From: Chthoniobacteraceae bacterium
GTDB taxonomy: Bacteria; Verrucomicrobiota; Verrucomicrobiia; Chthoniobacterales; Chthoniobacteraceae
Assembly (NCBI GenBank): GCA_037189865.1
Contig: JBBCIW010000002.1
Coordinates: 226,759 to 290,758 of the forward strand
Length of the DNA stretch: 64,000 nucleotides
Reading direction: 5' to 3'
The notes under the pieces are model-generated. The model made no database searches and was not told where the DNA came from. It saw only the letters and a program-made list of their open reading frames with translations. Positions 8,795-24,087 of the stretch are shown in pieces (position 1 is the first letter of the stretch; each line of letters starts with the position of its first letter). Both the position numbers and the translations under genes were made by a program.

Positions 8795-9523
8795 ATGACC
8801 TTGCCGCCCACCGAATTTGCCTACGCCCAGATCCGCAAACAGATTGTCTCCGGGGAACTCAAACCGGGGAGCACCCTCTCGGCCCTCGGGCTATCGAAGA
8901 AGATAGGGGTGAGCCGCACGCCGGTCCTCTTCGCGCTGCGCAACCTTGAAAAAGAGGGACTGGTAACCATCCAGCCACGAGTCGGCGCAGTCGTGCGAAG
9001 CATCAGTTCCGTCGAGGAGTACGACGAACTCCTCTCCCTGCGCGAGTTACTGGAGACCTTCGCCGCCGGGCTCGCTGCCGAGCGCCGTACGGAAGAAGAT
9101 CTCGCCCGGTTGGAGGTCGAGATGGAGAAGCTCAAGGTGTTGCAGAAGCTCAAAAAACCGTCCGAAATGGACGAAAAACGGGAGCGGGAACTCAACCTCG
9201 TCGACGTCACCTTCCACCTGCGCATCGTTCAGGCCGCGCACCACCGCCTGCTCCTCGAAGAGATCGGCCGCCATAGCCTGATCCACCGCGTCATCTTCCA
9301 GCCCTTCCAGAGCTTCACCCCGCCCGCCGACCAGATCGTCGCCATCCAGCGCGAATCGCTCGACGATCACTTGTGTATCTTCGAGGCGATCCGTGATCAG
9401 GAGATCGAAGCCGCCAAGGCTGCCATGGCCCAATCGTTCCGTGCCCTGCGCAAGAACAATCTCCTCGCGATCAACACCCTCCACGATCGCCAATGGCAGG
9501 AACCGCTCTCCGAACTGGCGTGA
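8795..9523 (+). CDS. GntR-family transcriptional regulator (FadR-like, FCD C-terminal domain)
   Basis: The track ORF 8555..9523 is trimmed to ATG 8795. The N-terminal wHTH is YAQIRKQIVSGELKPGSTLSALGLSKKIGVSRTPVLFALRNLEKEGLV. The helical C-terminal half contains FHLRIVQAAHH, typical of FCD domains. Confidence 0.85.
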   Translation: MTLPPTEFAYAQIRKQIVSGELKPGSTLSALGLSKKIGVSRTPVLFALRNLEKEGLVTIQPRVGAVVRSISSVEEYDELLSLRELLETFAAGLAAERRTEEDLARLEVEMEKLKVLQKLKKPSEMDEKRERELNLVDVTFHLRIVQAAHHRLLLEEIGRHSLIHRVIFQPFQSFTPPADQIVAIQRESLDDHLCIFEAIRDQEIEAAKAAMAQSFRALRKNNLLAINTLHDRQWQEPLSELA

Positions 9524-9621: not shown

Positions 9622-10404
9622 ATGGACCGCCTGCCGCTCATTTTTTCCACGATCTGCTTCCTGCTCGGATTCGCGTACACCATGTACACGTTCGGCGCAG
9701 GCAAGCACCGTTGGCCGCGCTTCAATCTCGTGGTGATGAGCCTCGGCTTTGCGTTGCAGACATGGTTTCTCCACCTGCGGGGTGCGGCGCTCGGGCGCTG
9801 CCCGCTGACCAACTTCTTTGAAGTGCTCATCTTTCTGGCGTGGTCGATGGTGCTCCTTTACCTCGTCGTCGGGACAGCCTACCGCCTCTCGCTCCTCGGG
9901 GCGTTTACTTCGCCGTTTGTTTTTCTCCTTCAGGTCGTCGCCCTGATCGCCCCGATCGACACCCCGGCCCGCCTCCTCTCCCGGCCCGATCCGTGGCTGG
10001 AGATGCACGCCGCCCTCTCGATCATCGCCTACGGGGCCTTTGCCATGGCAGGGGTCGCCGGAGTGATGTACGTGGCGCAGGAACGGCAGCTCAAAAGCCA
10101 CCACCTTAGCTCCATCTTCTACGAGATGCCGCCGATCATGCACCTCGCCGTCGCCAACAAACGGCTGCTCTGGACCGGGCTGATCCTTTTGACGATCGGC
10201 CTCTCCTGCGGCTTTCTGGTCCAAGGGCCGCTCAACGCCTACAAGATCGGCTGGGGGATCGTCATGTGGTTTATCTACCTCGGAATCGTCCTCGCACGGC
10301 GGATCGGCCCGCGCCGGATCGCGCTTCTCTCCGTCGCCGCGTTTTCCCTTTCCATCACCGCCCTCTGGGGGCTTAACTTCCTCGTCGCCCGAACCCGACT
10401 CTAA
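9622..10404 (+). CDS. Cytochrome-c-assembly-family (CcsA/YpjD/HemX-like) integral membrane protein
   Basis: 260 aa with about 8 hydrophobic segments. Its position directly upstream of hemA resembles the Bacillus hemA-hemX association. I saw no clear WGxxWxWD heme-handling motif. Confidence 0.65.
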   Translation: MDRLPLIFSTICFLLGFAYTMYTFGAGKHRWPRFNLVVMSLGFALQTWFLHLRGAALGRCPLTNFFEVLIFLAWSMVLLYLVVGTAYRLSLLGAFTSPFVFLLQVVALIAPIDTPARLLSRPDPWLEMHAALSIIAYGAFAMAGVAGVMYVAQERQLKSHHLSSIFYEMPPIMHLAVANKRLLWTGLILLTIGLSCGFLVQGPLNAYKIGWGIVMWFIYLGIVLARRIGPRRIALLSVAAFSLSITALWGLNFLVARTRL

Positions 10405-10412
10405 GAAAGACC

Positions 10413-11495
10413 ATGAACGTTTTGTGCCTGGGCGTCAGCCATCAGACAGCGAGTGTGGAGATCAGGGAACGCTTTGCGATCCCCGACACGCAACTTCCTG
10501 TCGTGACGCTCGAAGTCGGTGCGCTCCCGGGCGTGCGCGAGACGGTGATCGTCTCCACCTGTAACCGCGTCGAGTTCTACGCCGCCTCCGACAACGCCCC
10601 GGAAGCGCTCACGGCGCTCCGCTCCTACCTGAGCGACCGCTTCACCAGCAGCACTCCTCCCCTTCCCCTCGACCAGAAGAACGAGCCGTTTTACACCTTG
10701 AGCGGTCCGGCTTCGATCGAGCACCTCTTCCGCGTCGTCTCCGGGCTGGAATCGATGGTCCTCGGCGAGACAGAGATTCTCGGTCAGGTCAAAAAGGCGT
10801 ACGCCGCCGCTGCCGGGAGTGGGGCGACCTCCCGCCTGCTCAATAAACTCTTCCAACGCGCCTTCAACGTCGCCAAGGAAGTCCGCACCCGGACCAACAT
10901 CACGCGCGGCTCGGTCTCCGTCGGTTCAGTCGGGGTTGATCTGGCGGAGAAAATCTTCGGCAAGCTCGGGCGCTGCCACGCGATGATCCTCGGTGCGGGA
11001 GAGACGAGCGAACTGACCGCGCGCGCCCTCCTCTCCCGTGGCGTGCGGAGTATCTTTGTCTCCAACCGCTCCTACGACCGTGCCGCCCGGCTCGCAGCGG
11101 AGATGGGGGGTGAGGCGATCCACTTCGATCAGTGGGACCAACGCTTTTCCGACATCGACATCCTCATCTCCTCCACCGCCGCGCCGCACGCCATTATCAC
11201 CCCGGAGAAACTCGCCCCGGTGATGAAACGGCGGCAGGAGCGTCCGCTCTTTGTCATCGACCTCGCCGTCCCGCGCGATGCCGACCCGGCGATCAACCAA
11301 CTCGAAGGGGTCTACCTCTACGACATCGACGCCCTTCAAGCCATCGCCAACCGGGGTCTGGAGATCCGCCAGCGCGAGATCACCCAATGCGAAGCGTTGA
11401 TCGCCCGGCATGTCGACGAATTCCATGGCTGGCTGACCAGTTCCCCGGCCACTCCGCCGCTCCACCACCTCCCAATCGCCTCCCGCGAAGCATGA
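10413..11495 (+). CDS. hemA: Glutamyl-tRNA reductase (C-terminally short)
   Basis: MNVLCLGVSHQTASVEIRERFA, VIVSTCNRVEFY (catalytic Cys), GETEILGQVK and ILGAGETSE (NADPH site). It is 360 aa and ends soon after FHGWL. Confidence 0.9.
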   Translation: MNVLCLGVSHQTASVEIRERFAIPDTQLPVVTLEVGALPGVRETVIVSTCNRVEFYAASDNAPEALTALRSYLSDRFTSSTPPLPLDQKNEPFYTLSGPASIEHLFRVVSGLESMVLGETEILGQVKKAYAAAAGSGATSRLLNKLFQRAFNVAKEVRTRTNITRGSVSVGSVGVDLAEKIFGKLGRCHAMILGAGETSELTARALLSRGVRSIFVSNRSYDRAARLAAEMGGEAIHFDQWDQRFSDIDILISSTAAPHAIITPEKLAPVMKRRQERPLFVIDLAVPRDADPAINQLEGVYLYDIDALQAIANRGLEIRQREITQCEALIARHVDEFHGWLTSSPATPPLHHLPIASREA

Positions 11496-12406
11496 CCATC
11501 ACACTCGGCACCCGGGGGAGCGCCCTCGCCCTTGCCCAAGCCAACCTGACCCTCGAAGCGATCCGCCACCTTTGGCCCGAAGCCTCGACCCGCATCGTCG
11601 AATTCACCACCTCGGGCGATCGCAAGCTCGACTTGAGCCTCATCCGCCAGACCCCCTCGGGGGCCAAAGGGCTCTTTACCAAGGAACTCGAAGAAGCGCT
11701 CCTACGCGGAGAGATCGACATCGCCGTCCATAGCTGTAAGGACATGCCCGGGACCATGCCCGAAGGGTTGACGCTCGCCGCCCTCCTCCCGCGAGCCAAC
11801 ACCGGCGACATCCTCCTCACCCGCACGCCGCACCGCGATCTCGCCTCCCTCCCCCACGGCACCGCCTTGGCGACCAGCAGCGTGCGCCGCGCCCGCCAGC
11901 TTCTCTGGCAGCGACCCGATCTCAAGATCGAAGAGATCCGCGGCAACGTCCAGACCCGCCTGCGTAAGCTGCGCGAATCGGCCACGCTCGAAGGGATCGT
12001 CCTCGCCCAAGCCGGGCTGGAACGCCTTGGTTTCGACCCGCTGAGCGGCTCGTTGGAAAGCGAATCGGGCCGTTTCTACACCTTGCTCCTTGAGACCCTC
12101 CCTGCCATCGGCCAAGGGGCGATCGCCCTCCAGACCCGTCGGGAAGAGGCCGAACGGTTCGCCGCGCTCAACCACCTGCCGACCTGGCGGGCCGTCACTG
12201 CCGAGCGCGAACTAATGCGCCTGCTCGAAGGCGATTGCACCCTCCCGGTCGGCGTCGCCACGCGGGAAGAAGGCGAAACGCTCGCCATGGAAGCGATCCT
12301 CTTTGGCGAACCGGGAGACCCTCCACGCCTCGCCAAAGCCGACGGCTCCACCGCCGATCCGCTCGGGTTAGCCGCCAGCGTGTTTGCAGCGTTGCAAAAC
12401 GATTGA
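11492..12406 (+). CDS. hemC: Hydroxymethylbilane synthase (porphobilinogen deaminase)
   Basis: The track ORF 11132..12406 is trimmed to ATG 11492 (ATGA overlap with the hemA stop). Motifs are LGTRGSALALAQA, TSGDRKLD, KGLFTKELEEALL, IDIAVHSCKDMP and GNVQTRLRKL. Confidence 0.9.
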   Translation: MTITLGTRGSALALAQANLTLEAIRHLWPEASTRIVEFTTSGDRKLDLSLIRQTPSGAKGLFTKELEEALLRGEIDIAVHSCKDMPGTMPEGLTLAALLPRANTGDILLTRTPHRDLASLPHGTALATSSVRRARQLLWQRPDLKIEEIRGNVQTRLRKLRESATLEGIVLAQAGLERLGFDPLSGSLESESGRFYTLLLETLPAIGQGAIALQTRREEAERFAALNHLPTWRAVTAERELMRLLEGDCTLPVGVATREEGETLAMEAILFGEPGDPPRLAKADGSTADPLGLAASVFAALQND

Positions 12407-12431
12407 ACCCGGGGCAACCTTCCGGGTGTAC

Positions 12432-13961
12432 ATGGCGAAAACATCCACCCAAGGCATCTGTTATCTCACCGGCGCAGGCCCCGGCGATCTCGGACTGGTC
12501 ACGCTCAAAGCGCGTCAGTTGATCGAAAGCGCCGAAGTCCTCATCTACGACTACCTCTGCAACCCGGAAATGCTCGCATGGGCCCCGGCAGAGGCGGAGG
12601 TGATCTACGCCGGAAAGAAGGCCGGAGCCCACACGCTCACGCAGGATCAGATCAACGCCCTGCTCGTGGAAAAGACCAAGGCAGGCAAACGCGTCGTCCG
12701 GCTCAAAGGGGGCGATCCGTTCCTCTTCGGACGCGGGGGGGAAGAAGCCGAGGCGCTCGTCGCCGCCGGGCAGCGCTTTGAGATCGTCCCGGGCGTCTCC
12801 TCCGCCATCGCCGCCCCGGCTTATGCCGGCATCCCGGTCACCCACCGGGAACACAACGCCCAGTTGACCATCTTCACCGGCCACGAAAACCCGGAAAAAG
12901 AGAGTTCCTCGATCGACTACGCCGCGCTCGCCCAGCAAAAAGGGACGCGCGTCATGCTCATGGGGGTCGAGCGGCTCGAAGCGATCACCGCGTCGCTCAT
13001 CGCCGCCGGAGCCGCACCGCAGACGCCGATCGCCCTCGTGCGCTGGGGGACGACCGGGCGCCAGCAGACCGTGCGCGGCACGCTCGCCAACATCGCCGCT
13101 ACCGTGGCGCAAATCGGCTTCAAAGCCCCCGCCGTCGCCGTCATCGGCGAAGTCGTCACCCTGCGCGATTCGCTCAACTGGTTTGAAACCCGTCCGCTCT
13201 TTGGCAAACGGGTCGCCGTTACCCGCACCCGACAACAGGCCGGAGCTTTAAGCGAAACCCTCCGCGCCCTCGGGGCCGATGTCTTTGAACTCCCGACCAT
13301 CCGGATCGAGCCGCCCGCCAATCTCCTCGAATTCGGCCAGCTCGTGCAAGATTCCCACACTTACGACTGGCTCATCTTCACCAGCCCCAACGGGGTCGAC
13401 CGCTTTTTCGACCTCTTCTTCAAACTCTACAGCGACCTGCGCGAGATCGGCGGCGTGCGGATCGCCGCCATCGGCCCCGCCACAGCGGCACGGCTCAAGG
13501 CGCTCCACCTTCAGGTCGACCTCCAGCCCGAGCAATCGATCGCCGAAGGGATCATCAAGGCGTTCGTCGCCGAAGGATCGGTGGAGAACGAAAAAATCAT
13601 GATCATCCGGCCTGAGGCGGCCCGCAACGTGCTTGCTACAGAGTTAACGAAAATGGGAGCCATCGTCGACGAAGCCATCGCCTACCGCACCGTCCCCGAA
13701 ACCGACGGCAGCGGCATCGCCCGCTTCCGCGATGAAGGGGCCGACCTCATTACCTTCACCAGCGCCTCCACCGCGGAGAACTTTATGGCACTCGGCCTCC
13801 CCCTCCCGCCTCACCTCAAAACCGCCAGTATCGGCCCGATCACCTCTCAAGCGATGAAGAAACTGGGCCTTTCCGTCGATCTCGAAGCAAAAAAGCACGA
13901 TATTGAAGGCTTGAGCCACGCCATCCGGGCGTATTATACCGGTAGCGAAGGGAAAAAATAA
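12432..13961 (+). CDS. cobA-hemD: Bifunctional uroporphyrinogen-III C-methyltransferase / uroporphyrinogen-III synthase fusion
   Basis: The N-terminal half has SUMT motifs (YLTGAGPGDLGLVTLKA, VVRLKGGDPFLFGRGGEE, VPGVSSAIAAPAYAGIPVTHR). The C-terminal half (RVAVTRTRQQAGALSETLRALGADVFELPTIRI ... ITFTSASTAENF) is HemD-like. ATG 12432 is chosen inside track ORF 12384..13961. Confidence 0.85.
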   Translation: MAKTSTQGICYLTGAGPGDLGLVTLKARQLIESAEVLIYDYLCNPEMLAWAPAEAEVIYAGKKAGAHTLTQDQINALLVEKTKAGKRVVRLKGGDPFLFGRGGEEAEALVAAGQRFEIVPGVSSAIAAPAYAGIPVTHREHNAQLTIFTGHENPEKESSSIDYAALAQQKGTRVMLMGVERLEAITASLIAAGAAPQTPIALVRWGTTGRQQTVRGTLANIAATVAQIGFKAPAVAVIGEVVTLRDSLNWFETRPLFGKRVAVTRTRQQAGALSETLRALGADVFELPTIRIEPPANLLEFGQLVQDSHTYDWLIFTSPNGVDRFFDLFFKLYSDLREIGGVRIAAIGPATAARLKALHLQVDLQPEQSIAEGIIKAFVAEGSVENEKIMIIRPEAARNVLATELTKMGAIVDEAIAYRTVPETDGSGIARFRDEGADLITFTSASTAENFMALGLPLPPHLKTASIGPITSQAMKKLGLSVDLEAKKHDIEGLSHAIRAYYTGSEGKK

Positions 13962-14006
13962 ATTTACCCTTTCTTCCCTCTCCGATACGGTATTCCCCTG
14001 CTACCG

Positions 14007-15620
14007 ATGAACATTCCATCCCACCCGTCTCAAGGCAGTGACACCCCGAAGGGCTCCAGCGGCAAGCGCAAGGCCGTCGGCATCGACCTTGGCACCACGT
14101 TCTGTGCCATGGCGCACATCGACGAAAACGGGCGGGGCCAGATCATTCCCAACGCCGAAAGCGAGCGGATCACCCCGGTCGTCATCCTCTTTGACGGGGC
14201 GACCGCCATCGTCGGCAGCGCCGCCAAACAGAACGCCGTCGCGGAGCCGGAGAAGATCGTCGACTTCATCAAACGCGAAATTGGCAAGAGCAAGAACGAG
14301 TACCACCGCGAATTCGCCGGGAAAGTCTGGGCGGCGGAGGAACTCTGCGCGCTCGTCCTGCGCAAGCTCAAGCAGGACGGGGAAAAATTCCTCGGCTGCG
14401 CGATCAGCGATGTCGTCATCACCGTTCCCGCTTACTTCAGCGATCTGGAACGGACCGCCACGATGCACGCCGGGCAACTCGCCGGGTTCAACGTCCTGCA
14501 AGTTCTCAACGAGCCGACCGCCGCCGCGCTTGCCTACGGGATCGACCGGCGCGAGGGGCATGAAACCGTCTTTGTCTTTGACCTCGGCGGCGGCACCTTT
14601 GACGTCACCATCATGCGCATCTCCGAGCATCACATCCAGATGCTCGCCAGTAGCGGCGACCATAAACTCGGCGGCAAGGATTGGGACGACGTCATCGTCA
14701 ACTGGGTGAGCGAGGAGTTTGACCGGCAGTTCGGGGAGAACCCGCTGCTCGATCTCCACAGCTATCAGGATCTCTACAACCGGGCGCTCACCGCCAAGAT
14801 CCAACTCTCCAGCCGCAACTCGACGACCCTCGTCCACAGCTACGCCGGGCACAGCCTCAAAATTGAGCTGACCCGCGATGAATTCGAGTACCGCACGCAA
14901 CACCTCGTCGAGCGGACCCGCGCTATTTGCGAAATCGCGCTGGCCGAGTCCGAATTACAGTGGAACCAGATTGACCGCATCCTGCTCACCGGCGGGATGA
15001 CCCGGATGCCCTCCGTGCGCGAGATGATCCGTGAGATGAGCGGACGCCCGATCGCCGAGGATGTCAGCCCGGACGAAGCGGTCGCCATGGGGGCTGCCTT
15101 GCAGGCGACGCTCGTCCTGCTCGGCAAAGAGGACGAAGGGGGCGAACGGCTCATCTCTGAGGAGACACGCGGCAAGCTCTCCAGCTCCGACGGGGCGCTC
15201 GTCCGTGTCACCAACATCACCACGCACACCCTCGGCGTGGTCCTCTGGGACGACGAGCAGATGGAGGAGTACGTCTTCCCGATGATCCGCAAATCGACCA
15301 CCATCCCTGCGGAGATCCAAAATTCCTTCGGCACCGCGAAGGCGAACATGAAAAACGTCATCGTCCGGGTGGTCGAGGGAGAAAGCACCGTCCCCTCCGA
15401 GTGCATTCCGCTCGGCATTTGCGACGTCGAACTCCCGCCGTTTTTGCCGAAAGGATCGCCCGTCCAGTTGACCTATCGGTATGACCAGAATCAGGTGCTC
15501 GAAGTCACCGTCGACGCCTACGGCAATCAGAACAAAGTCAAAATCGCCCGCGACATCGGGCTGACAGAAGCGGAAATGGAGACCGCCACGGCGGATCTGA
15601 TGCGGATCAACGTGGAGTAA
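14007..15620 (+). CDS. Non-canonical, C-terminally truncated Hsp70-family ATPase (HscC-like size)
   Basis: 537 aa. Motifs are VGIDLGTTFCAMA, VITVPAYFSDLERTAT, LNEPTAAALAYG, FDLGGGTFDVTIM and LTGGMTRMPSVREMI. It has a beta-sandwich substrate-binding region but no long helical lid and no EEVD tail. Confidence 0.85.
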   Translation: MNIPSHPSQGSDTPKGSSGKRKAVGIDLGTTFCAMAHIDENGRGQIIPNAESERITPVVILFDGATAIVGSAAKQNAVAEPEKIVDFIKREIGKSKNEYHREFAGKVWAAEELCALVLRKLKQDGEKFLGCAISDVVITVPAYFSDLERTATMHAGQLAGFNVLQVLNEPTAAALAYGIDRREGHETVFVFDLGGGTFDVTIMRISEHHIQMLASSGDHKLGGKDWDDVIVNWVSEEFDRQFGENPLLDLHSYQDLYNRALTAKIQLSSRNSTTLVHSYAGHSLKIELTRDEFEYRTQHLVERTRAICEIALAESELQWNQIDRILLTGGMTRMPSVREMIREMSGRPIAEDVSPDEAVAMGAALQATLVLLGKEDEGGERLISEETRGKLSSSDGALVRVTNITTHTLGVVLWDDEQMEEYVFPMIRKSTTIPAEIQNSFGTAKANMKNVIVRVVEGESTVPSECIPLGICDVELPPFLPKGSPVQLTYRYDQNQVLEVTVDAYGNQNKVKIARDIGLTEAEMETATADLMRINVE

Positions 15621-15626
15621 GCCGGA

Positions 15627-17279
15627 ATGCGCCTGCCCCGTCCGCTGCCTGATAACCCTCTGAAATGGAACGGCTGGAAGAACTTCAACTCCAGCAATCC
15701 GTACGAACGGCTCTGCCTTGAATTTGAGTCGAACCCGACGCAGGAGCAGATCGACGAACATTGGCGACTGCTGCTGGTCTGGTGGCAAAAGAAACTCCCG
15801 CTCAAAAACCAGCCAAGCAACCCGATGGCGCAGGTCTTGCGGATCGGGCTCGATGAAGCGGCAGGGAAACTGACCGAAGCCCGCTCGATCTTGAGCGACC
15901 CCGCGCAACGGGCGCAGGTCGACGCGCAAGTCCTCGGAGCCGCGCGGGAAGCGGCGCTGGGGGAATTTCGCAAATTCCTCACCTTCGCCCTGACGACTGG
16001 CAAGCTGCATGAGGATGAGGAGGAGAGCCTCTACCTGACCGGGGCGCAACTCGGCCTCCCGCGCGAGGAGATGGAGACGATCATCGCCGCCACTCTTGAA
16101 GAGAAAGGGGCGCACCGCGTCCGGCGCATCGATACCACCGAGGCTCCCACCGCCGCTGCGCCTCCCCCTTCTCCCGCGGCGGCTCCTACTGCCGCCCCAC
16201 CGACCTCTCCAGCAGAGGAATTCCTGCGGATGCTCCGCCTCTCCGGGATCGACGAGATGACCGACGACCAGCGCGACGCCTTCTGCAACATGGGCGAAGC
16301 GCTCGGGCTGACCGGTGGCGAGGCCGAGGATGTCATCGACGACTACCTCGATGAACAGATGACCGGCACCCCGACCAGCTTCAAACCGGCCGTCCGCACG
16401 CCAGTTCCCAAAAAACCGCTCCCAGCGACCCCTAAAACCGCTGCACCGGCCCCCTCCCCCCTCCCCGCCGCTGCGCGTCCACAGCCGAAGGCAGTCTTTG
16501 TCGATTCACCGCTCCATCGCGCGGAAGAAAAGCAACGGTTTCCCCCGTTTCGTAACGGGTGCGGGATGGAGATGCGGCTCATCAACAGCGGCTCCTTTTT
16601 AATGGGGAGCAACCTCCCGGATGCCGCCGCCAACGAGCAACCGGTGACGCCGACCAAGATCTCCGCCTTCTACATGGCGCGAACCCCGGTCACCAACGCA
16701 CAGTACGAGGCGTTTGCCCCCGAGCATCGCGCCAAACGGACCCCTTGGGCCGATGATCACCACCCGGTTGTCTACGTCTCCGCAAAGGAAGCCGAGGCGT
16801 TCTGCCAATGGCTAAGCCAACGCGAAGGGAAGCGCTACCGCCTGCCGACCGAGGCGGAATGGGAATACGCCGCACGCGGCCCCGCCAACCTGACTTACCC
16901 TTGGGGCGACGCACCCCCCACCGGGCGGGAGGCCAACTTTGCCGACGCCAGCACCAGCTTCCCCTGGGCAGACAGGACCGTCACCGACGGCTATGCGCAG
17001 AGTTCCCCCGTCGGCGCCTTCCCCAAAGGGGCCAGCCCGTTTGGGCTTGATGACATGGCCGGCAACGTCTGGGAATGGTGTCTGGATGGTTTAAGCGCCT
17101 ACACCGGGCGGGAGAGGATCAACCCACGCGGCCCACAGGAAAGCCCGAGACGCATCTGCCGCGGCGGAAGCTGGAAAGCCCGCCTCAACAGCCTGCGTGC
17201 TTCTGCCCGAGCCTTCAACGCCCCGCAACTTTCCGCCCACGACATCGGCTTCCGCGTCGTGTGTGAGATTGCGGGGTGA
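15627..17279 (+). CDS. Multidomain protein: HPD-less J-like domain, two helical LGL-x-x-E modules, Pro/Ala linkers, and a C-terminal FGE/SUMF1-like domain lacking the catalytic Cys pair
   Basis: 550 aa, starting 6 nt after the Hsp70 stop. Residues 24-100 (NPYERLCLEFESNPTQEQIDEHWRLLLVWWQKKLPLKNQ...ILSDPAQRAQVD) fit the J-domain helix pattern but have LPL where HPD should be. Residues about 305-548 carry FGE-sulfatase hallmarks (RLPTEAEWEYAARG, DMAGNVWEWCLD, RGGSW, GFRVV). Confidence 0.75.
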   Translation: MRLPRPLPDNPLKWNGWKNFNSSNPYERLCLEFESNPTQEQIDEHWRLLLVWWQKKLPLKNQPSNPMAQVLRIGLDEAAGKLTEARSILSDPAQRAQVDAQVLGAAREAALGEFRKFLTFALTTGKLHEDEEESLYLTGAQLGLPREEMETIIAATLEEKGAHRVRRIDTTEAPTAAAPPPSPAAAPTAAPPTSPAEEFLRMLRLSGIDEMTDDQRDAFCNMGEALGLTGGEAEDVIDDYLDEQMTGTPTSFKPAVRTPVPKKPLPATPKTAAPAPSPLPAAARPQPKAVFVDSPLHRAEEKQRFPPFRNGCGMEMRLINSGSFLMGSNLPDAAANEQPVTPTKISAFYMARTPVTNAQYEAFAPEHRAKRTPWADDHHPVVYVSAKEAEAFCQWLSQREGKRYRLPTEAEWEYAARGPANLTYPWGDAPPTGREANFADASTSFPWADRTVTDGYAQSSPVGAFPKGASPFGLDDMAGNVWEWCLDGLSAYTGRERINPRGPQESPRRICRGGSWKARLNSLRASARAFNAPQLSAHDIGFRVVCEIAG

Positions 17280-17365
17280 ACGCCCCCGCCAATTCCCGGC
17301 ACGGCCACAACAGAGCCAGAAACCCCTTGTCATCAAGGAAGGGAGGATAGCAAAATGGGGAAGTG

Positions 17366-18187
17366 ATGATAGCAAACCGCTCCCCCTTCGTCCCTTTCCT
17401 GCTTTTCGCCGCCGCTTTAGTAAGTCTTCGCCACAGCGCCGCGGCAGATGTTTCCCCGACAGAAGCCGGTCCCTATATCGGTATTTTCGGGGGAATCGGT
17501 TCGTCCTCCGTGACGAGCCTCCAACAGACAGGTGCCGTCTACCTCAATCCTCCCCACAGTTATCCCAAGCTTCCCGTCAACGCCAAAGGTCCGACGGATA
17601 CCAACAACGACATCTTTGTCGCAGGCATCCAGATCGGTTACGAATGGGATCGACCCACCTTCACATCGGGATGGGGTATCCTGCCTGCCGTCGAATTTGA
17701 AGGACTCTACATCGGGGAGCATTCCCCGATCGGGGAGATGCCGGTTCGCCCCCGGTTTTTGGGGACACAGTACGTTGAAATTCCGCTCACAACGGGCGTC
17801 GCCTTGGCCAACGCCGTTTTGACACTCAAGACACCTTATTCTGACAGAATTTTTCCCTACCTTGGCCTTGGCGTTGGGGCGGCCTTCACTTTCATCAATG
17901 GATCAGATTCCTCCAATCCGTCCGAACCCGGCATCAACCATTTCAACTCCGACCCGGACGCGTCTGACATCGCCTTCGCCTTACAGGCAAAAGCGGGGAT
18001 CAAGGCCAAAATACACAAAAACGTCTTCCTCTTTCTCGAATACCGATACCTTTTTATTGATTCAACTAGCTACACTTTCGGTTCGACAGATTATCCCGGC
18101 GCTCACCTCCCGACAACCAGTTGGCGTGTCGACCTTGGTCGTCAGGAATACAATTTGTTCACTGCTGGCCTGCAATATAAATTCTGA
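17366..18187 (+). CDS. Outer-membrane beta-barrel protein (OmpA-like/porin-family 8-10 strand barrel)
   Basis: The track ORF starts at GTG 17363, and an ATG follows at 17366. The signal peptide is MIANRSPFVPFLLFAAALVSLRHSAAA. It shows alternating amphipathic strands, Gly/aromatic girdle residues and a C-terminal ...GLQYKF with terminal Phe, typical of BAM substrates. Confidence 0.6.
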   Translation: MIANRSPFVPFLLFAAALVSLRHSAAADVSPTEAGPYIGIFGGIGSSSVTSLQQTGAVYLNPPHSYPKLPVNAKGPTDTNNDIFVAGIQIGYEWDRPTFTSGWGILPAVEFEGLYIGEHSPIGEMPVRPRFLGTQYVEIPLTTGVALANAVLTLKTPYSDRIFPYLGLGVGAAFTFINGSDSSNPSEPGINHFNSDPDASDIAFALQAKAGIKAKIHKNVFLFLEYRYLFIDSTSYTFGSTDYPGAHLPTTSWRVDLGRQEYNLFTAGLQYKF

Positions 18188-18240
18188 CATTCACACCATT
18201 CCCAATGCAGATCGCCGGGGAAATAGAGCACGCAATAAGC

Positions 18241-18266
18241 GTCAACGCCACAGGGTCAACGCCACA
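18241..18266 (+). repeat. Tandem 12-bp direct repeat GTCAACGCCACA x2 (14-bp period) just upstream of ATG 18278
   Basis: GTCAACGCCACA occurs at 18241-18252 and again at 18255-18266, separated by GG. The second copy ends 11 nt before the start codon. Confidence 0.5.
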
Positions 18267-18277
18267 TCCAACTTAAA

Positions 18278-19195
18278 ATGACGCACCCTGTTATCGCAAC
18301 CATAGCTAGTCTTGCGATTTTAACGGCTTCATGCCAAGCGCAAGAACAATCACCGGGATCGTGGGCCTCCCTGATCAAAGCGAAAGCACTGACCGAAACT
18401 GCCTTACAGCTAAAAGAAACCGATCAATGGCCAATGATCCTTCCACCAACCGGGATCAATCGCCTCGCTAAAGAGGAGCAAGCGGAAATGCTCCAACGTA
18501 TCGACGCCGTTAAGGAGTTTCTGGAAAAGATTGAAGCAGAGATCGAGGCGCTATCGACTCTGAGTGAAAAGGCTCTGGCAACTGGTGGATATGTCAATGT
18601 TCTACTGGCAGATAGCTTTCATCGGGTGATCCTCTACCGTTTGTCCAACTGGCTGATCTCCCATCCTGATGATGCCGCTTTTTGTGAAAGGCTGCTGACT
18701 TCAGTCGGTCCAAAAATGAGCCAAAATGATGTCGATGTGCTCCAGATCGCCGCCGATGACGATCCGAGGTTCATTGAGGAAAAACCGGACTTTGCTCAGA
18801 TCGATCCGACCAAAAGCATCTATCAATCACTCAGGACCCTTGGGATACCGGAACGTGATGTATTAGAGGCAGCCATGGTGCCGTGGCCACAAACCAGTCA
18901 GCTTTTGGAAACACCCTCCGCCATTTCATTGGCAATCCGTACCACCGATACCGCTGCGATCAGAGAGGTTCACCTCGCCGGACTCATCGAGTTTTTCAAA
19001 AAAGGAGGCGTGGTCTCTGAACTAAACGCTGCTGACGTCAGAGCTTTTGAAAAACGGATGGGAAAGTCTTTGAGAACTTTCAAATCCCTTCAATTCGGCA
19101 TTCGCCGTCTTAGTGTCATGCATCTACTGGCTCTGTTTGACATTCATAAGGATCCATCAATAGGTGCATTTTTCTTAAAAACAGCACTCCAATAG
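18278..19195 (+). CDS. Hypothetical secreted/lipoprotein-like helical protein (no family recognised)
   Basis: 305 aa. The N-terminus MTHPVIATIASLAILTASCQAQ is signal-like with a possible lipobox Cys. GC is clearly lower than in flanking genes. I recognise no motifs. Confidence 0.5.
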   Translation: MTHPVIATIASLAILTASCQAQEQSPGSWASLIKAKALTETALQLKETDQWPMILPPTGINRLAKEEQAEMLQRIDAVKEFLEKIEAEIEALSTLSEKALATGGYVNVLLADSFHRVILYRLSNWLISHPDDAAFCERLLTSVGPKMSQNDVDVLQIAADDDPRFIEEKPDFAQIDPTKSIYQSLRTLGIPERDVLEAAMVPWPQTSQLLETPSAISLAIRTTDTAAIREVHLAGLIEFFKKGGVVSELNAADVRAFEKRMGKSLRTFKSLQFGIRRLSVMHLLALFDIHKDPSIGAFFLKTALQ

Positions 19196-19297
19196 AACCC
19201 CAAAGCGTTAACTTTCCTGTAAATCCCCTTTTACGCCTTCGCAAAAGCGACTGCATCCGCGAGATCAAGCTGCATCTATGGATCGCAGAAACCATCA

Positions 19298-19987
19298 CTA
19301 TTCTCCCCGAACCCGGGTGATAGAGACCCACTGGTGGAGGCGATGTGCCAGTAACCCGGCGGCCTCCAGTTGTGGATCGTGCCCGGTTGTAAGCTCCGTG
19401 ACCTCACACCCCGGGAGGCGTCCGGCGGCCTCACTTTGCCATTCCGGGCAGATGCACTCGTCCTTCTGGCAAACGAAATAGGCTTTGGGTCGCTCGGGTG
19501 AAAAAGGAAGGTCCATTTTCTCTTCGTAGAGCACGGGGAGGAACCGAGCGGAGGTGCGAGGTTGGCTGGCGATCTCCTCCAGCCATTGAGAGGTGAAAAT
19601 CGATCGTTGGCCTTCAAACATCTGTTCCAAAAGGGAGAACCCCGGTTCAGGCACTAGTGCGGCGATGTAGACCTCCCCCATCACCCTGCCCGGTGTCACG
19701 CGCTGTGCCAGCCGCTCCAAAAGCAATCCCCCTGCGGAATGCCCTACGAGAACGACCTCTGTTGAGGTCTCCGCCTCCTCCAGCGCTAGGGCGAGCCGAT
19801 CGACCACCCTGCGCACTCCTTCTTTCCAAGGCAACCCATGGAGATCGATGCCTCGCCAGCGATGCCCCAAGCCTTCGAGCCACTCTCCGCAGCACGCCCA
19901 GCTTCGTGCATCCTCCTCCGAACCGCTGATGAAGAAAAAGCTTACCCCACCTTGATTAAAAGGTCGCACGAGGCTCCACATGCCCAT
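19298..19987 (-). CDS. Alpha/beta-fold hydrolase (esterase-like)
   Basis: The track ORF 19298..20083 is trimmed to an internal ATG (19987 or 19981) to limit overlap with the upstream gene's 3' end. The nucleophile elbow is VLVGHSAGG, and a C-terminal TTGHDP supplies a His. Size is typical of small carboxylesterases. Confidence 0.6.
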   Translation of the reverse strand: MGMWSLVRPFNQGGVSFFFISGSEEDARSWACCGEWLEGLGHRWRGIDLHGLPWKEGVRRVVDRLALALEEAETSTEVVLVGHSAGGLLLERLAQRVTPGRVMGEVYIAALVPEPGFSLLEQMFEGQRSIFTSQWLEEIASQPRTSARFLPVLYEEKMDLPFSPERPKAYFVCQKDECICPEWQSEAAGRLPGCEVTELTTGHDPQLEAAGLLAHRLHQWVSITRVRGE

Positions 19988-20657
19988 CGAAGAAGAGGAC
20001 ATTGCGAACCTTGCGGTGCACGGGGTCATTCGGTACACGCGGGTCGGTCTGATAGTGGCCCTCCATGGCAATACGGCGATCAAACTCCCAGAACGCGGGC
20101 GTCGTGGCGGGATTAGCCAGTGCCGTGACCATCATCGGCGCGAGAGGCTCGCCCCCCGCTCGACCAAAAGGGAAAATCGAAGTCTGTTCATCCTCGTTCC
20201 CAACGAGGATCTCCCCTGCTGAATAATAGCAGATCGGATGATCGGCAGCCGCGCCATGGGCCTCCCATGCCGGGCAGGTGAGGATCTTTGCCAAGGCACT
20301 CTGGCCGGGGTTCACCCTCGGCAGATCGAGATATGGCCCCAGCAAGGTCACCAGATTGCCGCTCTCCACGTCAAACTCCCCCGTCGCATCACTCTGGTAG
20401 AGAGGACTTTGACCACGCCACAACGGCCCCGGTAACCGAAAATGATGCTCGGCACTATATAGATTAAGGGCGAGACCGATCTGGCGTAAGTTCGTGAGGC
20501 AACTAGTCTCCTGCTGACTGGCACGCCAACGCCCCACGCCACCCACCAATGCCACGCTCACCAAAGCAACGATCGTTAAAGCAAGCGTCAGTTCCAGCAA
20601 GGTCATTGCTTTACGCTTCGCATAGGGGGAAATGCTTACGGAAATTCGAGCCTTCAT
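19956..20657 (-). CDS. Prepilin-type N-terminal methylation-domain protein of the DUF1559 / H-X9-DG family
   Basis: The start is set at MKARISV... (20657). The class-III signal is KRKA|MTLLELTLALTIVAL (Glu at +5). The DUF1559 motif is SCLTNLRQIGLALNLY. The C-terminal motif HRKVRNVLFFDGH is H-X9-DG. Confidence 0.75.
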   Translation of the reverse strand: MKARISVSISPYAKRKAMTLLELTLALTIVALVSVALVGGVGRWRASQQETSCLTNLRQIGLALNLYSAEHHFRLPGPLWRGQSPLYQSDATGEFDVESGNLVTLLGPYLDLPRVNPGQSALAKILTCPAWEAHGAAADHPICYYSAGEILVGNEDEQTSIFPFGRAGGEPLAPMMVTALANPATTPAFWEFDRRIAMEGHYQTDPRVPNDPVHRKVRNVLFFDGHVEPRATF

Positions 20658-20859
20658 CGTAAAAAAAGATCCATAGCCTCCAAGTTGAGCCAAGTCAACT
20701 TCCTTCTAGGAACAACACCCTAGGGGAAAACCTGCTCCGCTATCATAGCAATGAGTAAGGAGATACAAATATCATCGACGATTCATCTCTTAATAAGATC
20801 GATGATCCATCGTCAGAAGATGCAAAGATCCTCCCTCGCCCCACTCCCTTACACTTTAC

Positions 20860-20904
20860 GAAAAAACCCATCCTTATCCGATTAAAATTCGGATAAGGAT
20901 GGGT
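20860..20904 (-). terminator. Rho-independent terminator of the pseudopilin gene
   Basis: There is a perfect 16-bp inverted repeat ACCCATCCTTATCCGA (20866-20881) / TCGGATAAGGATGGGT (20889-20904) with a 7-nt loop. On the minus strand the stem is followed by TTTTTT (A-run 20861-20866). It lies 59 nt downstream of the stop at 20963. Confidence 0.75.
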
Positions 20905-20962
20905 TGAATCTCCTAATGGGAAAGGACGAAAATTCCTTCCGAAGAAATTTGATGAATTATTA

Positions 20963-21667
20963 TTACAGCGGGTTCAGCACGGACTGGGCACCTACCCCAC
21001 CAGTTCCACCTGCCGACAGCCAGTTATCATGGCTCAAAAAGATATTATCTATCTCAGATCCGCCAACGGGCCCTTTGACAGCGAGATTATCGGTGGTTTT
21101 GATACGTTCAACACGTCCGCTGCCATCCACACGAATCACAATGGCGGCTTCGCCCTTCCAAAGCCCCCCTTTCTGCGTTTCATCTGCAGAGTAGAGAGCC
21201 GTCGTTGCATCAGCAAAACCATCCGCAATGATCGGGAAGTTCGGATTGGAGGTATCCGAGAGATTCTTGACGTAAGCCCAGTGATTGTTGCCCGTGATCA
21301 GAACCTTCTCCGCAGTGGTGGTATCTTCATCAGGTTGCTCTGTGCTCCACTTGGACTTAGCAACGTAGAAAATCTTCTCACTTTTGATGTAATCAGGAAC
21401 GATGTGCTTAAATGCCTCATTGGAGTTCCCGGCATCTGCAGCACTTCCAAAGGCCTTCGACGGGAAGGCACCATCATTGTCGCCAGCGTACATCTTCAGA
21501 CCGAGATAGATCTGCTTGGCATCACTGAGCGCCTTGGTCTGCTGACCACGCGTGATCACCCCGGTGAAGGCAGGAACCGCGATACCGGCCAGAATGGCGA
21601 TAATCGAGATAACGACCAGAAGTTCGATCAGCGTGAAGCCCTCTTTCGGGGTGTGGCGTATTTTCAT
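20963..21667 (-). CDS. Type II secretion/type IV pilin-like pseudopilin (prepilin N-terminal cleavage/methylation domain)
   Basis: MKIRHTPKEG|FTLIELLVVISIIAILAGIAVPAF is a canonical GFTLIE prepilin signal. It has no H-X9-DG motif and appears monocistronic, with its own terminator. Confidence 0.8.
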   Translation of the reverse strand: MKIRHTPKEGFTLIELLVVISIIAILAGIAVPAFTGVITRGQQTKALSDAKQIYLGLKMYAGDNDGAFPSKAFGSAADAGNSNEAFKHIVPDYIKSEKIFYVAKSKWSTEQPDEDTTTAEKVLITGNNHWAYVKNLSDTSNPNFPIIADGFADATTALYSADETQKGGLWKGEAAIVIRVDGSGRVERIKTTDNLAVKGPVGGSEIDNIFLSHDNWLSAGGTGGVGAQSVLNPL

Positions 21668-21837
21668 ATTTGGGGGTCTACTTTGAATTTTCTTGAACTG
21701 GAATATTTCAGGATTCGGGGGTTCGTACCTCTAGGTATAGAAGCTATGACAGAGTCAGCGTACCGGAGAAAACCGGGAGTGCAACTCCTTTTTTTCCTGT
21801 TTTCCATGCAAAAAGCTCTTTTTCCCTTGTCGGGATA

Positions 21838-24087
21838 TTAGCTTTCGTTATGATCGCCCGGTTTTTCTTTTTCCCACCGGAATCCGACCACGGAAAGTGG
21901 CGGTAAAACGAGACTCAAGGCATGGGACCGCCCCTGCCACGGGAGTTCCAGCGCGGTCACTCCCCCGAAATTCCCCAGCCCGCTCCCTCCGTAGGCATCC
22001 GCATCGGTGTTGAGCACCTCCTCGTACCACCCCCGGTGCGGGACGCCGATCCGGTAATTCTCCCTCACGACCGGGGTGGCGTTGATCACAAAAACCAGCA
22101 GCGAGCCATCGGCCCCCTTGCGCAGGAAGGCGACGACGGAGTGGTCCGCGTCATGAAAGTCGATCCACTCGAACCCTTCGAAGGTATCATCAAGACTCCA
22201 GAGCGCCTCTTCCCCCCGGTAAAGCTCGTTCAAATCGCGCACGAGACGGCGCACGCCATTGTGAAAATGGGAATCAAGCAGATGCCAGTCGAGGCTCTTG
22301 GCGTGATTCCATTCCGCCCATTGCCCGAACTCCCCACCTTGAAAGAGCAGCTTCTTGCCGGGGTGCGCGTACATCCACGCGTAAAAGAGGCGCAGGTTGG
22401 CGAACTTCTGCCAGAGGTCACCCGGCATTTTCCCAAGCAGTGACCCCTTGCCGTGGACGACTTCGTCGTGACTGAGCACCAGCACGAAATGCTCATGAAA
22501 CGCGTAGAGGAGCGAAAAGGTGATCTCCCCCTGATGATAACGACGAAAGACCGGTTCGCGCGCCATGTACTCCAGAAAGTCGTGCATCCACCCCATGTTC
22601 CACTTCAACCCGAAGCCGAGGCCACCCAAATAGGTAGGCCGTGTGACCCCGGGCCATGCGGTCGACTCTTCGGCGATCGTCATGATGCCGGGATGGCGTG
22701 CGTAGCAGACCTCGTTGAACTCCTTGAGGAACGCAATCGCCTCAAGGTTCTCCCGCCCGCCGTGGTGGTTGGGAATCCACTCGCCCGCCTGCCGGGAGTA
22801 GTCGAGATAGAGCATCGAGGCGACGGCATCAACCCGCAACCCGTCGATGTGGTATTTCTCCAGCCAGAAGAGGGCGTTGTTGATCAGGAAGTTGCGTACT
22901 TCATTGCGCCCGTAGTTGAAGATGAGCGTCCCCCAATCGGCATGTTCGCCCTGTCGCGGGTCGGCGTGCTCGTAGAGTGCGGTGCCGTCGAACCGGGCCA
23001 GCCCGTGGGCGTCCTTGGGGAAGTGACCGGGAACCCAGTCGAGAATAACGCCGATACCGCGCTGGTGGCAGCGGTCGACAAAACGGCGAAACTCATCGGG
23101 ATGCCCGAAACGGCTCGTCGGGGCGAAATAGCCGGTGACCTGATACCCCCAGGAGCCATCGAAAGGATGCTCGGCAACCGGCATCAACTCCAAGTGGGTG
23201 TACCCCATGTCGCAGACGTAATCGAGGAGGCGATCAGCCAGTTCCAGATACGAAAGAGGGCGATCCCCCTCTTCGGGAATCCGCGCCCATGAGCCGAGGT
23301 GAACCTCGTAAATGGAGACCGGGCGGCGGTGCCACTCCTGCTCGCGCCGTGCGGCCATCCACTCGGCGTCGCCCCACTCGTAGCGCCCGAGATCGTAAAC
23401 AATGGAGGCGGTCTGCTGGCTGTGCTGACCGTAGAAGGCGTACGGGTCGCTTTTGAGCGTGAGATGCCCGGCCTGATCGCGGACTTCAAATTTATAATGC
23501 GCCCCCGGCTGCACCCCGGGCAGGAAGATCTCCCAGACGCCGCTCTCGAAATGCTTGCGCATTGGGTAAATCCGCCCGTCCCAGCCGTTAAAATCGCCCA
23601 CGACGCTCACCCGCTCCGCATTCGGCGCCCAGACGGCGAAGTGGCACCCGTCAACCCCCTCAAACTTCGCGGCATGCGCCCCGAGCTTTTCGTCAATCTG
23701 CCAATGCTTGCCTTGAAGGAAGAGGTGCGTATCGAGTTCCCCAAAGCGCGAACCAAAGGCATACGGATCGTGCGTGGTCCACTCCGTACCATCATGCCCG
23801 GTCAGGCGCAGACGGTACGGGAAGCGGGTGATCGCGAAGCTCGCCGGGATGAGCGCTTCAAAAAAACCGGCGGGATCGAAACGCCGCGCCGGGAAGCGGT
23901 GCACTTCGCCCTCGCCGGAAAGCGGAGCGACCTCGACCTCCACCGCTCGAACATCGGGCCGGAGCACACGGACCACAAACGTCCCCCCCGCTTCGTGCAG
24001 ACCGAGGTGAGCAAAAGGATCGCCATGCCGGGCGGCGAGCAGGCTCTCAAGGTGGCGCGGGTCGAGCGTCGGGGAAAGGTGGTTCAT
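21838..24087 (-). CDS. glgB: 1,4-alpha-glucan branching enzyme (GH13)
   Basis: The track ORF 21838..24303 is trimmed to ATG 24087 ([29 protein letters not shown]). It has the GH13 conserved regions: [34 protein letters not shown] and [14 protein letters not shown]. Confidence 0.92.

Follow-up and report, generated by a model that had tools for sequence, protein, structure and literature searches.

A lidless Hsp70 and an HPD-less J-like adaptor with an FGE-like head form a candidate dedicated chaperone module in Chthoniobacterales

We analyzed a stretch of 64,000 nucleotides (nt) from a Chthoniobacteraceae bacterium (contig JBBCIW010000002.1 of assembly GCA_037189865.1), hereafter called the window. 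Two adjacent genes in it encode an Hsp70 of 537 amino acids (aa) that has no lid and a 550-aa protein in which an N-terminal J-like domain without the HPD motif is joined to a C-terminal FGE-sulfatase-like domain. We consider it probable that these genes constitute a dedicated, non-canonical and insulated Hsp70 module that is vertically inherited in Chthoniobacterales and in which the second protein acts as an adaptor selecting a conserved target.

The Hsp70 matches Pfam HSP70 (PF00012) with E=6e-115 over profile positions 1-513 of 599. It has the actin-fold nucleotide-binding domain (NBD), the peptide-binding beta-sandwich and the catalytic residues of the superfamily, and the equivalents of DnaK D8, K70, E171, D194, T199 and D201 are kept in 120/120 orthologues. 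Relative to DnaK, the alignment of the NBD shows deletion of residues ~83-110, of the 209-212 loop and of the 'GrpE signature' loop. The interdomain linker reads LVRVTNITT where DnaK has VLLLDVTP; the D393 equivalent is Asn in 120/120 orthologues and VLLL is replaced by V/I-K/R-V-T. Within the beta-sandwich, the equivalents of P419 and K414 are conserved, D477 is replaced by Arg, Thr or His and D481 by Asn. Aligned with E. coli DnaK, HscA and HscC, the protein ends in ...RINVE, 20 aa past the beta-sandwich, and nothing in the wider clade aligns beyond DnaK position 535. Pfam and the alignment thus bear out a preliminary description of this DNA, made from its letters alone, which had noted a full ATPase and beta-sandwich without lid or EEVD tail.

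This Hsp70 appears to belong to a clade apart from DnaK, HscA and HscC. It scores 397 bits against the NCBIfam DnaK model NF001413 (cut-off 648), 393 against TIGR02350 (cut-off 823) and 317 against the HscA model (cut-off 708); heme genes surround it, and no HscB is present. Its identity to E. coli DnaK, HscA and HscC is 34, 31 and 33%, respectively, and it is 43-49% identical to the Hsp70s that adjoin distant J-like adaptors. In a neighbor-joining tree of 61 sequences, with a small reference set of three E. coli proteins and four metagenomic full-length DnaK-like sequences, the lidless Hsp70s split from all of these references in 97/100 bootstraps, with HscC as the nearest canonical branch. 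Indels are common to the window protein and the single HscC reference, whereas the 33% identity, the split in the tree, the missing lid and the dedicated GrpE of relatives would point to a separate type. The NCBIfam scores show that the protein is no DnaK or HscA orthologue, in line with the preliminary statement that the pair is not housekeeping DnaK/DnaJ.

The adaptor gene starts 6 nt past the Hsp70 stop, in the same frame and on the same strand, and translational coupling of the two genes is therefore plausible. No match to Pfam DnaJ was found in the adaptor N-terminus at E<=0.1, and the claim that this region is J-like was thus tested by other means. Profile-profile alignment (hhalign) against ten genuine J-domains gave a probability of 86% with an alignment of the close family and of 96.8% (E 2.4e-10) with an alignment of distant relatives. 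An AlphaFold2 model of adaptor aa 1-245, built with 19 homologues, has a mean predicted local distance difference test (pLDDT) score of 87.5 and comprises a helical domain (aa ~15-105) and, after it, two three-helix modules between which aa 170-189 are disordered. When the model was compared with the PDB by Foldseek, the J-domains of Tid1, DNAJC12 and HCG3 ranked 1, 2 and 4, with probabilities up to 0.96 and a TM-score of 0.62 on the target, at E-values that all exceed 1 because the query spans several domains. Together these comparisons indicate that the adaptor N-terminus is homologous to J-domains and has lost the HPD, as the preliminary description had supposed. An invariant KKLPLKNQPSNP stands in its place, and the surrounding motif WWQKKLPLKNQPSNP is invariant in 28/28 sequences and in 70/70 paired loci.

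Published DnaJ-DnaK contacts allow this change to be read from both sides of the interface. D35 of the HPD bonds R167 and Q378 of DnaK, H33 bonds L391 of the linker, and the basic J-domain residues R22, K26, R27, K48 and K51 face the acidic E206, D211, E217 and D477 (PMC8215388). In the window Hsp70 the positions R167/E206/D211/E217/D477/VLLLD read Q/R/deleted/Q/R/LVRVTN, and DnaK's contact set is thus not retained. Position 167 is Gln in 106/120 orthologues and Ala, Gly or Gln in distant members, while R167 is kept in DnaK, HscA, HscC and Hsp70-vWA fusions. Across the clade, E206 has become Arg or Lys, E217 Arg or Gln and D477 Arg, Thr or His, and the D211 loop is deleted. A metagenome set of 79 loci gives the same picture: 24/25 lidless Hsp70s that precede an HPD-less J-like protein have no Arg at 167, and the full-length DnaK-like proteins of the set keep R167 and D393.

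On the adaptor side, the position of DnaJ R22 is Glu in 26/28 sequences (Glu or Asp overall), K23 is replaced by Asp, Glu or Ser, R27 by Gln, and both K48 and K51 by Ala; K26 alone survives, as an invariant R47. As aligned, the comparison shows a complementary change on both partners, in which the acidic Hsp70 patch has apparently become basic and the basic helix II acidic. We take this two-sided change of contact residues as evidence of probable co-evolution. Covariation of position 167 with the adaptor motif within Chthoniobacterales is uninformative because the motif is invariant.

The two helical modules that follow the J-like domain copy one unit, EF.+.L....G.L...E...L...G..LGL...E....I. 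Pfam TerB (PF05099) has no match in the adaptor at E<=0.1; the adaptor family profile does match the repeats of P0357, a bona fide TerB protein called by Pfam at E=8.7e-24, with E 2.5e-10 (pairwise BLASTP 5e-5), which supports the label TerB-like. Scans with Pfam, NCBIfam and PADLOC gave no TerB or defence match for the adaptor N-terminus. The second repeat (TDDQRDAFCNMGEALGLTGGxAEDxIDxYL) is the best conserved part of the adaptor, with 75% mean identity, and the two linkers are the least conserved, with 21% and 28%; the second linker occupies the spot where distant relatives have transmembrane (TM) helices. No signal peptide or TM segment was found in the adaptor, whose maximum 19-aa hydropathy is 0.55, or in the Hsp70. 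The open reading frames (ORFs), the AlphaFold2 model and the identity profile hence confirm the architecture first described, namely a partner 6 nt downstream with two helical modules and Pro/Ala-rich linkers, neither protein carrying a signal peptide.

At the C-terminus, adaptor aa 315-545 match Pfam FGE-sulfatase with E=1e-53, which establishes the fold. The PDB sequences that match best (E~1e-30) belong to FGEs and to the Cys-less ToxD, human pFGE/SUMF2 is also matched, many FGE core residues are kept and many residues are invariant. Aligned residue by residue with the FGEs of T. curvata and human, 'GGSW---KARLNSLR' of the adaptor lies opposite 'GGSFLCHESYCNRYR' of a solved FGE: the solved enzymes have GGSF-LCHESYC-NRYR and the adaptor GGSW-KARLNSLR, three residues shorter and without Cys. 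The copper-binding catalytic Cys pair (human C336/C341) is absent family-wide, and the segment found at this place, RGGSWKARLNSLRASAR, is a motif conserved across the adaptor family. Since both catalytic Cys are missing, the domain cannot make formylglycine. Sulfoxide synthases of the EgtB/OvoA/SenA type gave partial matches of 55-84 bits against cut-offs of 360-420, and no DinB domain is present. The Pfam match and the FGE alignment accordingly agree with the earlier reading of a Cys-less FGE-like C-terminus.

The pairing of the two genes is strongly conserved. Homologues of the adaptor N-terminus number more than 1,300 at 90% clustering, and the best 120 of them are all FGE-bearing, ~550 aa long and from Verrucomicrobiota/Chthoniobacteraceae. 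With one genome per GTDB species, 400 genomes hold a relative of the adaptor N-terminus; locus counts out of 80 refer to the best 80 of these, which are all Chthoniobacterales and include the cultured Chthoniobacter flavus Ellin428. In 78/80 of them the gene just 5' of the adaptor gene encodes an Hsp70 orthologue, as expected of a dedicated pair; one exception is a contig end and the other is real. CobA/hemD is upstream in 58/80 loci, and complete genomes repeat the order CcsA/HemX-like, hemA, hemC, cobA/hemD, Hsp70, adaptor, with differing genes downstream. Across the order, Hsp70 identity is 70-91% and exceeds that of the neighboring hemD. Against four relatives, the Hsp70 has a ratio of nonsynonymous to synonymous substitution rates (dN/dS) of 0.07-0.13, the J-like domain one of 0.14-0.28 and the FGE-like domain one of 0.15-0.25, and all folded domains fall within 0.07-0.28; the values are rough because dS is near saturation. 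The G+C content of the module region equals that of its flanks, and a scan of viral contigs did not find the module. PADLOC returned no match for the Hsp70 and, for its partner, only a sub-threshold and implausible Cas8e (E=0.011). Conserved synteny, flank-like G+C content, purifying selection and absence from viral contigs point to a core-genome locus rather than an island, and we conclude that it is most likely inherited vertically in Chthoniobacterales.

The real exception is in a Chthoniobacter flavus metagenome-assembled genome, where the adaptor gene (L008:5971-7626) lacks any Hsp70 in the 6 kb before it; the long ORF at that place is a spurious antisense frame rich in GC. Conversely, two Hsp70s that are 61-66% identical to that of the window (L108:7980-9560 and L121:7962-9560) have neither adaptor nor GrpE and adjoin response-regulator genes.

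A third gene belongs to most of these loci. Between hemD and the Hsp70, 59/80 carry a gene of 245-290 aa that is GrpE-like and reaches the Pfam GrpE gathering score (for example L019:3472-4320, L064:3560-4297 and L003:5503-6324). Its presence in most relatives suggests that the ancestral module comprised three members, an exchange factor, the Hsp70 and the adaptor. The preliminary remark that the pair has no grpE is true of the window only and not of its relatives.

Members of the wider family point the same way. A HMMER pass over 1.84 billion representatives recovered 227 clusters related to the adaptor N-terminus. These distant relatives share the J-like domain, with the consensus HYxRLGL...R..WW.....NP...A..L.D..KK..YD, and the first TerB-like repeat. 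Most have a second J-like domain, which reaches Pfam DnaJ in 15/32 and has no HPD in 31/32, and one to six TM segments are predicted in 26/32. Their C-terminal domains vary between PEGA, PDZ, TPR, BACON/Ig-like, LamG-like, PA-IL, RodZ_C and, twice, FGE. Such swappable head domains fit an adaptor role. Wherever flanks are available, the distant adaptor gene directly follows an Hsp70 of 511-534 aa, and GrpE precedes that Hsp70 in L087, L089/90, L092, L093/94 and L095 (in L096/97 the upstream ORF is unannotated); the order GrpE, lidless Hsp70, J-like adaptor recurs in six or seven unrelated metagenomic contexts and in many loci of a further metagenome set. The window carries the cassette of a lidless Hsp70 with a residue other than Arg at 167 followed by a J-like adaptor of the WW..NP type, with no GrpE upstream. 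By sequence, its module is best placed as a soluble, FGE-bearing branch of this family. Another subfamily, of ~315-380 aa, combines the J-like domain with an MshEN domain (PF05157) and directly follows an Hsp70 with Asp or Glu at position 167. MshEN is a receptor module for cyclic di-GMP (c-di-GMP).

Several family loci have further features. MshEN-type adaptors were seen at L141, L144, L147, L149, L155, L156, L158, L162, L164 and L165. On two unrelated contigs (L089:1100-5984 and L093:1914-6916), genes for a rhomboid protease, an Hsp70-vWA fusion (678-696 aa, R167 retained), GrpE, a lidless Hsp70 and a membrane J-like adaptor stand in this order, and in L089 a NERD/NACHT protein is encoded 4.5 kb downstream. 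Tandem pairs of lidless Hsp70s follow GrpE in L125/L126 (7995-11787), L131, L134 and L159; position 167 of the first copy is Arg in L125/L126, L131 and L134 and Ala in L159, and that of the second copy varies (Ala, Lys or Arg). Two large proteins of 864-887 aa, P0319 (L089:6001-8595) and its counterpart at L124:1134-3794, combine a J-like domain, a TerB-like module, a second J-like domain (Pfam DnaJ) and an FGE-like domain; for P0319, about five TM segments are predicted.

Table 1. Coordinates of the module, its domains and the genes upstream. Positions are those of the window and aa numbers those of the encoded protein.
Feature	Position	Strand	Basis or remark
CcsA/HemX-like gene	9622-10404	+	Upstream, co-directional; Pfam
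hemA	10413-11495	+	Upstream, co-directional; Pfam
hemC	~11477-12406	+	Upstream, co-directional; Pfam
cobA/hemD fusion	12384-13961	+	Directly upstream of Hsp70; Pfam
Lidless Hsp70 gene	14007-15620	+	ORF of 537 aa
Nucleotide-binding domain, aa 22-369	14070-15113	+	ATPase residues intact
Gln165, at the position of DnaK Arg167	14499-14501	+	Alignment
28-aa lineage-specific insertion, then altered interdomain linker	15114-15224	+	Alignment
Substrate-binding beta-sandwich, aa ~407-517	15225-15557	+	Alignment to DnaK/HscC; insertion of 6-7 aa in loop L1,2
Short C-terminal helix GLTEAEMETATADLMRINVE	15558-15617	+	No lid helices B-E, no EEVD tail
Adaptor (co-chaperone candidate) gene	15627-17279	+	550 aa: J-like, two TerB-like, FGE-like
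J-like domain without HPD, aa 23-105	15693-15941	+	hhalign, Foldseek; no Pfam DnaJ
Invariant motif WWQKKLPLKNQPSNP(M/L/I)	15780-15827	+	Replaces end of helix II and HPD loop
TerB-like repeat 1, aa 108-166	15948-16124	+	AlphaFold2 helices 92-121, 129-141, 146-160
Pro/Ala-rich disordered linker 1	16125-16208	+	pLDDT <50 at aa 170-189; 21% mean identity
TerB-like repeat 2, aa 195-244	16209-16358	+	Same three-helix pattern as repeat 1
Pro/Ala/Lys-rich linker 2	16359-16568	+	Ends in conserved SPLxRAEEKxxFPxF
FGE-sulfatase-like (C-type-lectin-like) domain, non-catalytic	16569-17267	+	Pfam; PDB matches
Segment RGGSWKARLNSLRASAR	17160-17210	+	FGE Cys pair (LCHESYC) deleted or replaced

Upstream of the module (Table 1), a protein of the CcsA family ('cytochrome c assembly') is encoded directly 5' of hemA-hemC-cobA/hemD, an arrangement that we take to recall the hemX-hemA order of Bacillus, and a GntR/FCD regulator at 8798-9523 precedes it. 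Downstream, the gene at 17363-18187, which is not syntenic in relatives, codes for an outer-membrane beta-barrel protein (PF13505) that has a signal peptide; the region's only sigma-70-like promoter match (17327-17356) lies ahead of it. About 900 nt past the adaptor gene the G+C content falls from ~62% to 52% (18001-22000), and this stretch is not conserved beside the module in other genomes. It contains an unannotated gene for a secreted-looking protein (18278-19195) and, on the minus strand, two genes (19956-20693 and 20963-21667) for proteins whose N-terminal segments are of the prepilin type.

Taken together, the module would work as follows. The Hsp70 is predicted to hydrolyze ATP actively and to bind peptides through its ordinary beta-sandwich; the missing lid should make target binding and release fast and allow bulky or folded targets to be accepted. 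The adaptor would be its private partner, the J-derived domain most likely docking at the site formed by the NBD, the linker and the beta-sandwich of the substrate-binding domain. The rewired contacts would make each partner specific for the other and shield the pair from housekeeping DnaK and DnaJ. The Cys-less FGE-like head could recruit a single conserved ligand or client for the Hsp70, or gate the J-like domain when bound. The domain is non-catalytic and sits where relatives carry other binding domains, which fits a target-selecting head, and the sensor or recruiting role first suggested for it is consistent with the swappable heads of the wider family. The TerB-like repeats are probably a module of the kind also present in DjlA-type J-proteins. 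In most relatives a dedicated GrpE-like exchange factor would complete the triad, the subclade of the window having presumably lost it from the locus.

A number of observations weigh against this reading of the pair. Changing H or D of the HPD abolished ATPase stimulation in every system tested (PMC8215388). It may thus be that the J-like domain does no more than tether or regulate, like J-like proteins such as Pam16. Both the docking site and any ATPase stimulation are predictions from sequence comparison. The N-terminus has no Pfam DnaJ match, the Foldseek E-values are above 1, and a PDB profile search with the J-like domain placed the THOC1 death domain first (E 0.13) and also returned TetR. 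Furthermore, the profile alignments disagree on what lies opposite the HPD, LPL with the close family or NP-M with distant relatives, and the charge-swap argument depends on these alignments. The tree that separates the Hsp70 from the known types has few references. In the window's subclade, 14 loci whose Hsp70s are at least 80% identical, hemD directly borders the Hsp70 and the GrpE-like gene is lacking, and the window has no copy at 13961-14007 or anywhere else in its 64 kb; deletion of the 'GrpE signature' loop also fits oddly with a dedicated GrpE. Finally, the TM segments of P0319 imply that its FGE-like domain may lie outside the cytoplasm, and the role of this domain may thus have changed between the membrane protein and the soluble adaptor of the window.

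An ordinary dnaK-dnaJ pair, a chance adjacency and a mobile defence island were also considered and rejected. Among the explanations that compete with a target-selecting module, a chaperone dedicated to tetrapyrrole/heme or cytochrome biogenesis survives best, although we regard it as unlikely. It would be co-transcribed with hemX-hemA-hemC-cobA/hemD, and its FGE-like head would bind an enzyme or intermediate, for example to control the stability of HemA. The cluster is co-directional, no terminator-like site was found on the + strand between hemD and the Hsp70, and we infer that the hem genes and the module may form one operon. HemD is also upstream in the 58/80 genomes mentioned above and in metagenome loci of the Chthoniobacterales type, downstream neighbors vary, and hscBA inside the isc operon provides a precedent. 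However, about 8 loci with full flanks have no hemD upstream, hemA and hemC are not adjacent in L001, and no distant family member lies near heme genes. Gene order shared within one bacterial order could reflect common descent and not function, and we see nothing that ties FGE-like domains to tetrapyrroles.

Somewhat more doubtful is a conflict or stress-sensing switch, in which the FGE-like head detects an invader or damage molecule and the Hsp70 serves as a nucleotide-dependent trigger. The variable heads of the wider family, the Hsp70-vWA fusion and rhomboid genes of some loci and the nearby NACHT/NERD protein speak for such a role, and there are published precedents (PMC7159879; PMC12642450). 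The Chthoniobacterales locus is nevertheless fixed, syntenic and vertically inherited with flank-like G+C content, purifying selection acts on its FGE domain, and the locus has no linked effector gene; the PADLOC and viral-contig scans gave no support beyond the implausible Cas8e. The conflict system raised in the preliminary description is hence not borne out in Chthoniobacterales: the idea fits some distant relatives and the precedents, not the behavior of the window locus.

A sulfatase-specific holdase is very improbable. Here the Cys-less FGE-like domain, like human pFGE/SUMF2, would still recognize the CxPxR motif of sulfatases not yet folded and deliver them to the Hsp70 ahead of modification or export. 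Unfolded sulfatases are the substrates of FGE, and bacteria of the Planctomycetes-Verrucomicrobia-Chlamydiae (PVC) group tend to be sulfatase-rich; true FGEs are the nearest solved relatives, pFGE/SUMF2 is matched, and the fold and core residues are kept. Yet the segment around the active-site Cys pair, which is part of the peptide site, is deleted, no sulfatase gene is linked to the module in any locus examined, and Cys-less FGE-like domains occur in many unrelated contexts (PorK/GldK, PvdO and ToxD). The conserved hemA-hemC-hemD linkage thus suggests a tetrapyrrole connection and the FGE ancestry suggests sulfatase-type peptides, both as minority possibilities. Least credible of all is that the N-terminal domain is another helical adaptor, such as a Death-like domain, and the 550-aa protein a client or unrelated neighbor of the Hsp70: the missing Pfam match and HPD, the THOC1 hit and the Foldseek E-values would allow it, but the 96.8% profile-profile match, J-domains as three of the top four fold matches, the consistent adjacency to Hsp70 and GrpE genes across distant lineages and the second domain of relatives that reaches Pfam DnaJ argue otherwise.

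Returning to the dedicated module with a target-selecting adaptor, its family bears on how Hsp70 systems are classified. A review recognizes three prokaryotic types, DnaK, HscA and HscC (PMC8215388), and the largest J-protein census discarded all sequences without HPD (PMC10410713) and by its design would have passed over the adaptor family. We found no account of the wider family of Hsp70 systems in the literature searched, nor any paper joining Hsp70 with FGE-sulfatase or formylglycine. We tentatively raise the possibility that the family is an unclassified fourth prokaryotic type, with a private GrpE, a lidless Hsp70 in which the J-binding surface is charge-inverted and R167 is missing, and HPD-less, mostly membrane-anchored adaptors with swappable sensor heads (FGE-like, MshEN, PDZ, PEGA, lectin-like and TPR), and that it operates in signal transduction as a chaperone switch gated by ligands or envelope signals rather than as a folding machine. 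With HPD and R167 lost, charges swapped and purifying selection strong, it offers a natural experiment in rewiring of the Hsp70/J interface, which bears on the minimal needs of J-domain signaling and on what keeps paralogous Hsp70 systems from cross-talking. The exchangeable heads, which include a c-di-GMP receptor domain, suggest Hsp70s as bacterial signaling devices. Since the cultured Chthoniobacter flavus Ellin428 carries the module, these ideas are directly testable.

Known systems resemble the module in parts. The FGE-sulfatase fold without the Cys pair is shared with pFGE/SUMF2, ToxD, PorK/GldK and PvdO, none of which carries a J-like domain or has an Hsp70 as its partner. Mitochondrial Pam16/Tim16 and DNAJB13 likewise retain a J fold without HPD. 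J-like proteins such as Pam16 regulate or tether an Hsp70 system alongside a true J-protein, whereas the window module encodes no HPD-bearing J-protein, and in it the surface of the Hsp70 has altered together with the J-like domain. DjlA works with the housekeeping DnaK, not with a private Hsp70. The DjlA-type 'TerB-DnaJ' architecture (PMC10410713) also combines TerB-like repeats with a J-type domain, and distant relatives of the window adaptor are membrane-anchored too; the domain order is reversed, and the window adaptor has no HPD and carries an FGE-like head.

Among systems with unusual Hsp70s, Myxococcus xanthus StkA is a 540-aa DnaK homologue that is not heat-inducible and regulates exopolysaccharide rather than being a general foldase (PMC4319316). 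Compared by description and not by sequence, its length suggests a lidless Hsp70; its neighbors StkB and StkC are SCP2-like and PhaE-like, not J-like. GAP1-N2 GTPase conflict systems include HSP70, GrpE and DnaJ-fused proteins with extra binding repeats (PMC7159879), and lidless DnaK-like domains are fused to EACC1-protease modules in other conflict systems (PMC12642450). These are read as defence through their GTPase, protease or effector links, none of which is seen at the core-genome locus of the window.

The closest parallels are the specialized Hsp70s with their own J-proteins. HscA and HscB are the model case of an Hsp70 with a dedicated J-protein, placed in a biosynthetic operon (Fe-S cluster assembly) and serving a single client class; in contrast to the window pair, HscA (31% identical) has a lid and R167, HscB has an HPD, and there is no GrpE. 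HscC is a specialized, non-heat-shock Hsp70 encoded beside its own J-proteins DjlB and DjlC. It shares with the window Hsp70 a deletion at DnaK ~76-101, the lost D211 and GrpE-signature loops and an insertion in L1,2 (PMC8215388), and DjlC also departs from HPD (HPE). HscC differs in its sequence (33% identity), in keeping a shortened lid and R167 and in being thought GrpE-independent, whereas the window system has no lid and Gln at 167, and most of its relatives have a dedicated GrpE; DjlB and DjlC, for their part, have a recognizable J-domain and no FGE or TerB parts. A specialized Hsp70 with a dedicated co-chaperone is thus an already known kind of system, to which the module described here belongs, and the module has a reasonable chance of marking a fourth type of prokaryotic Hsp70 system.

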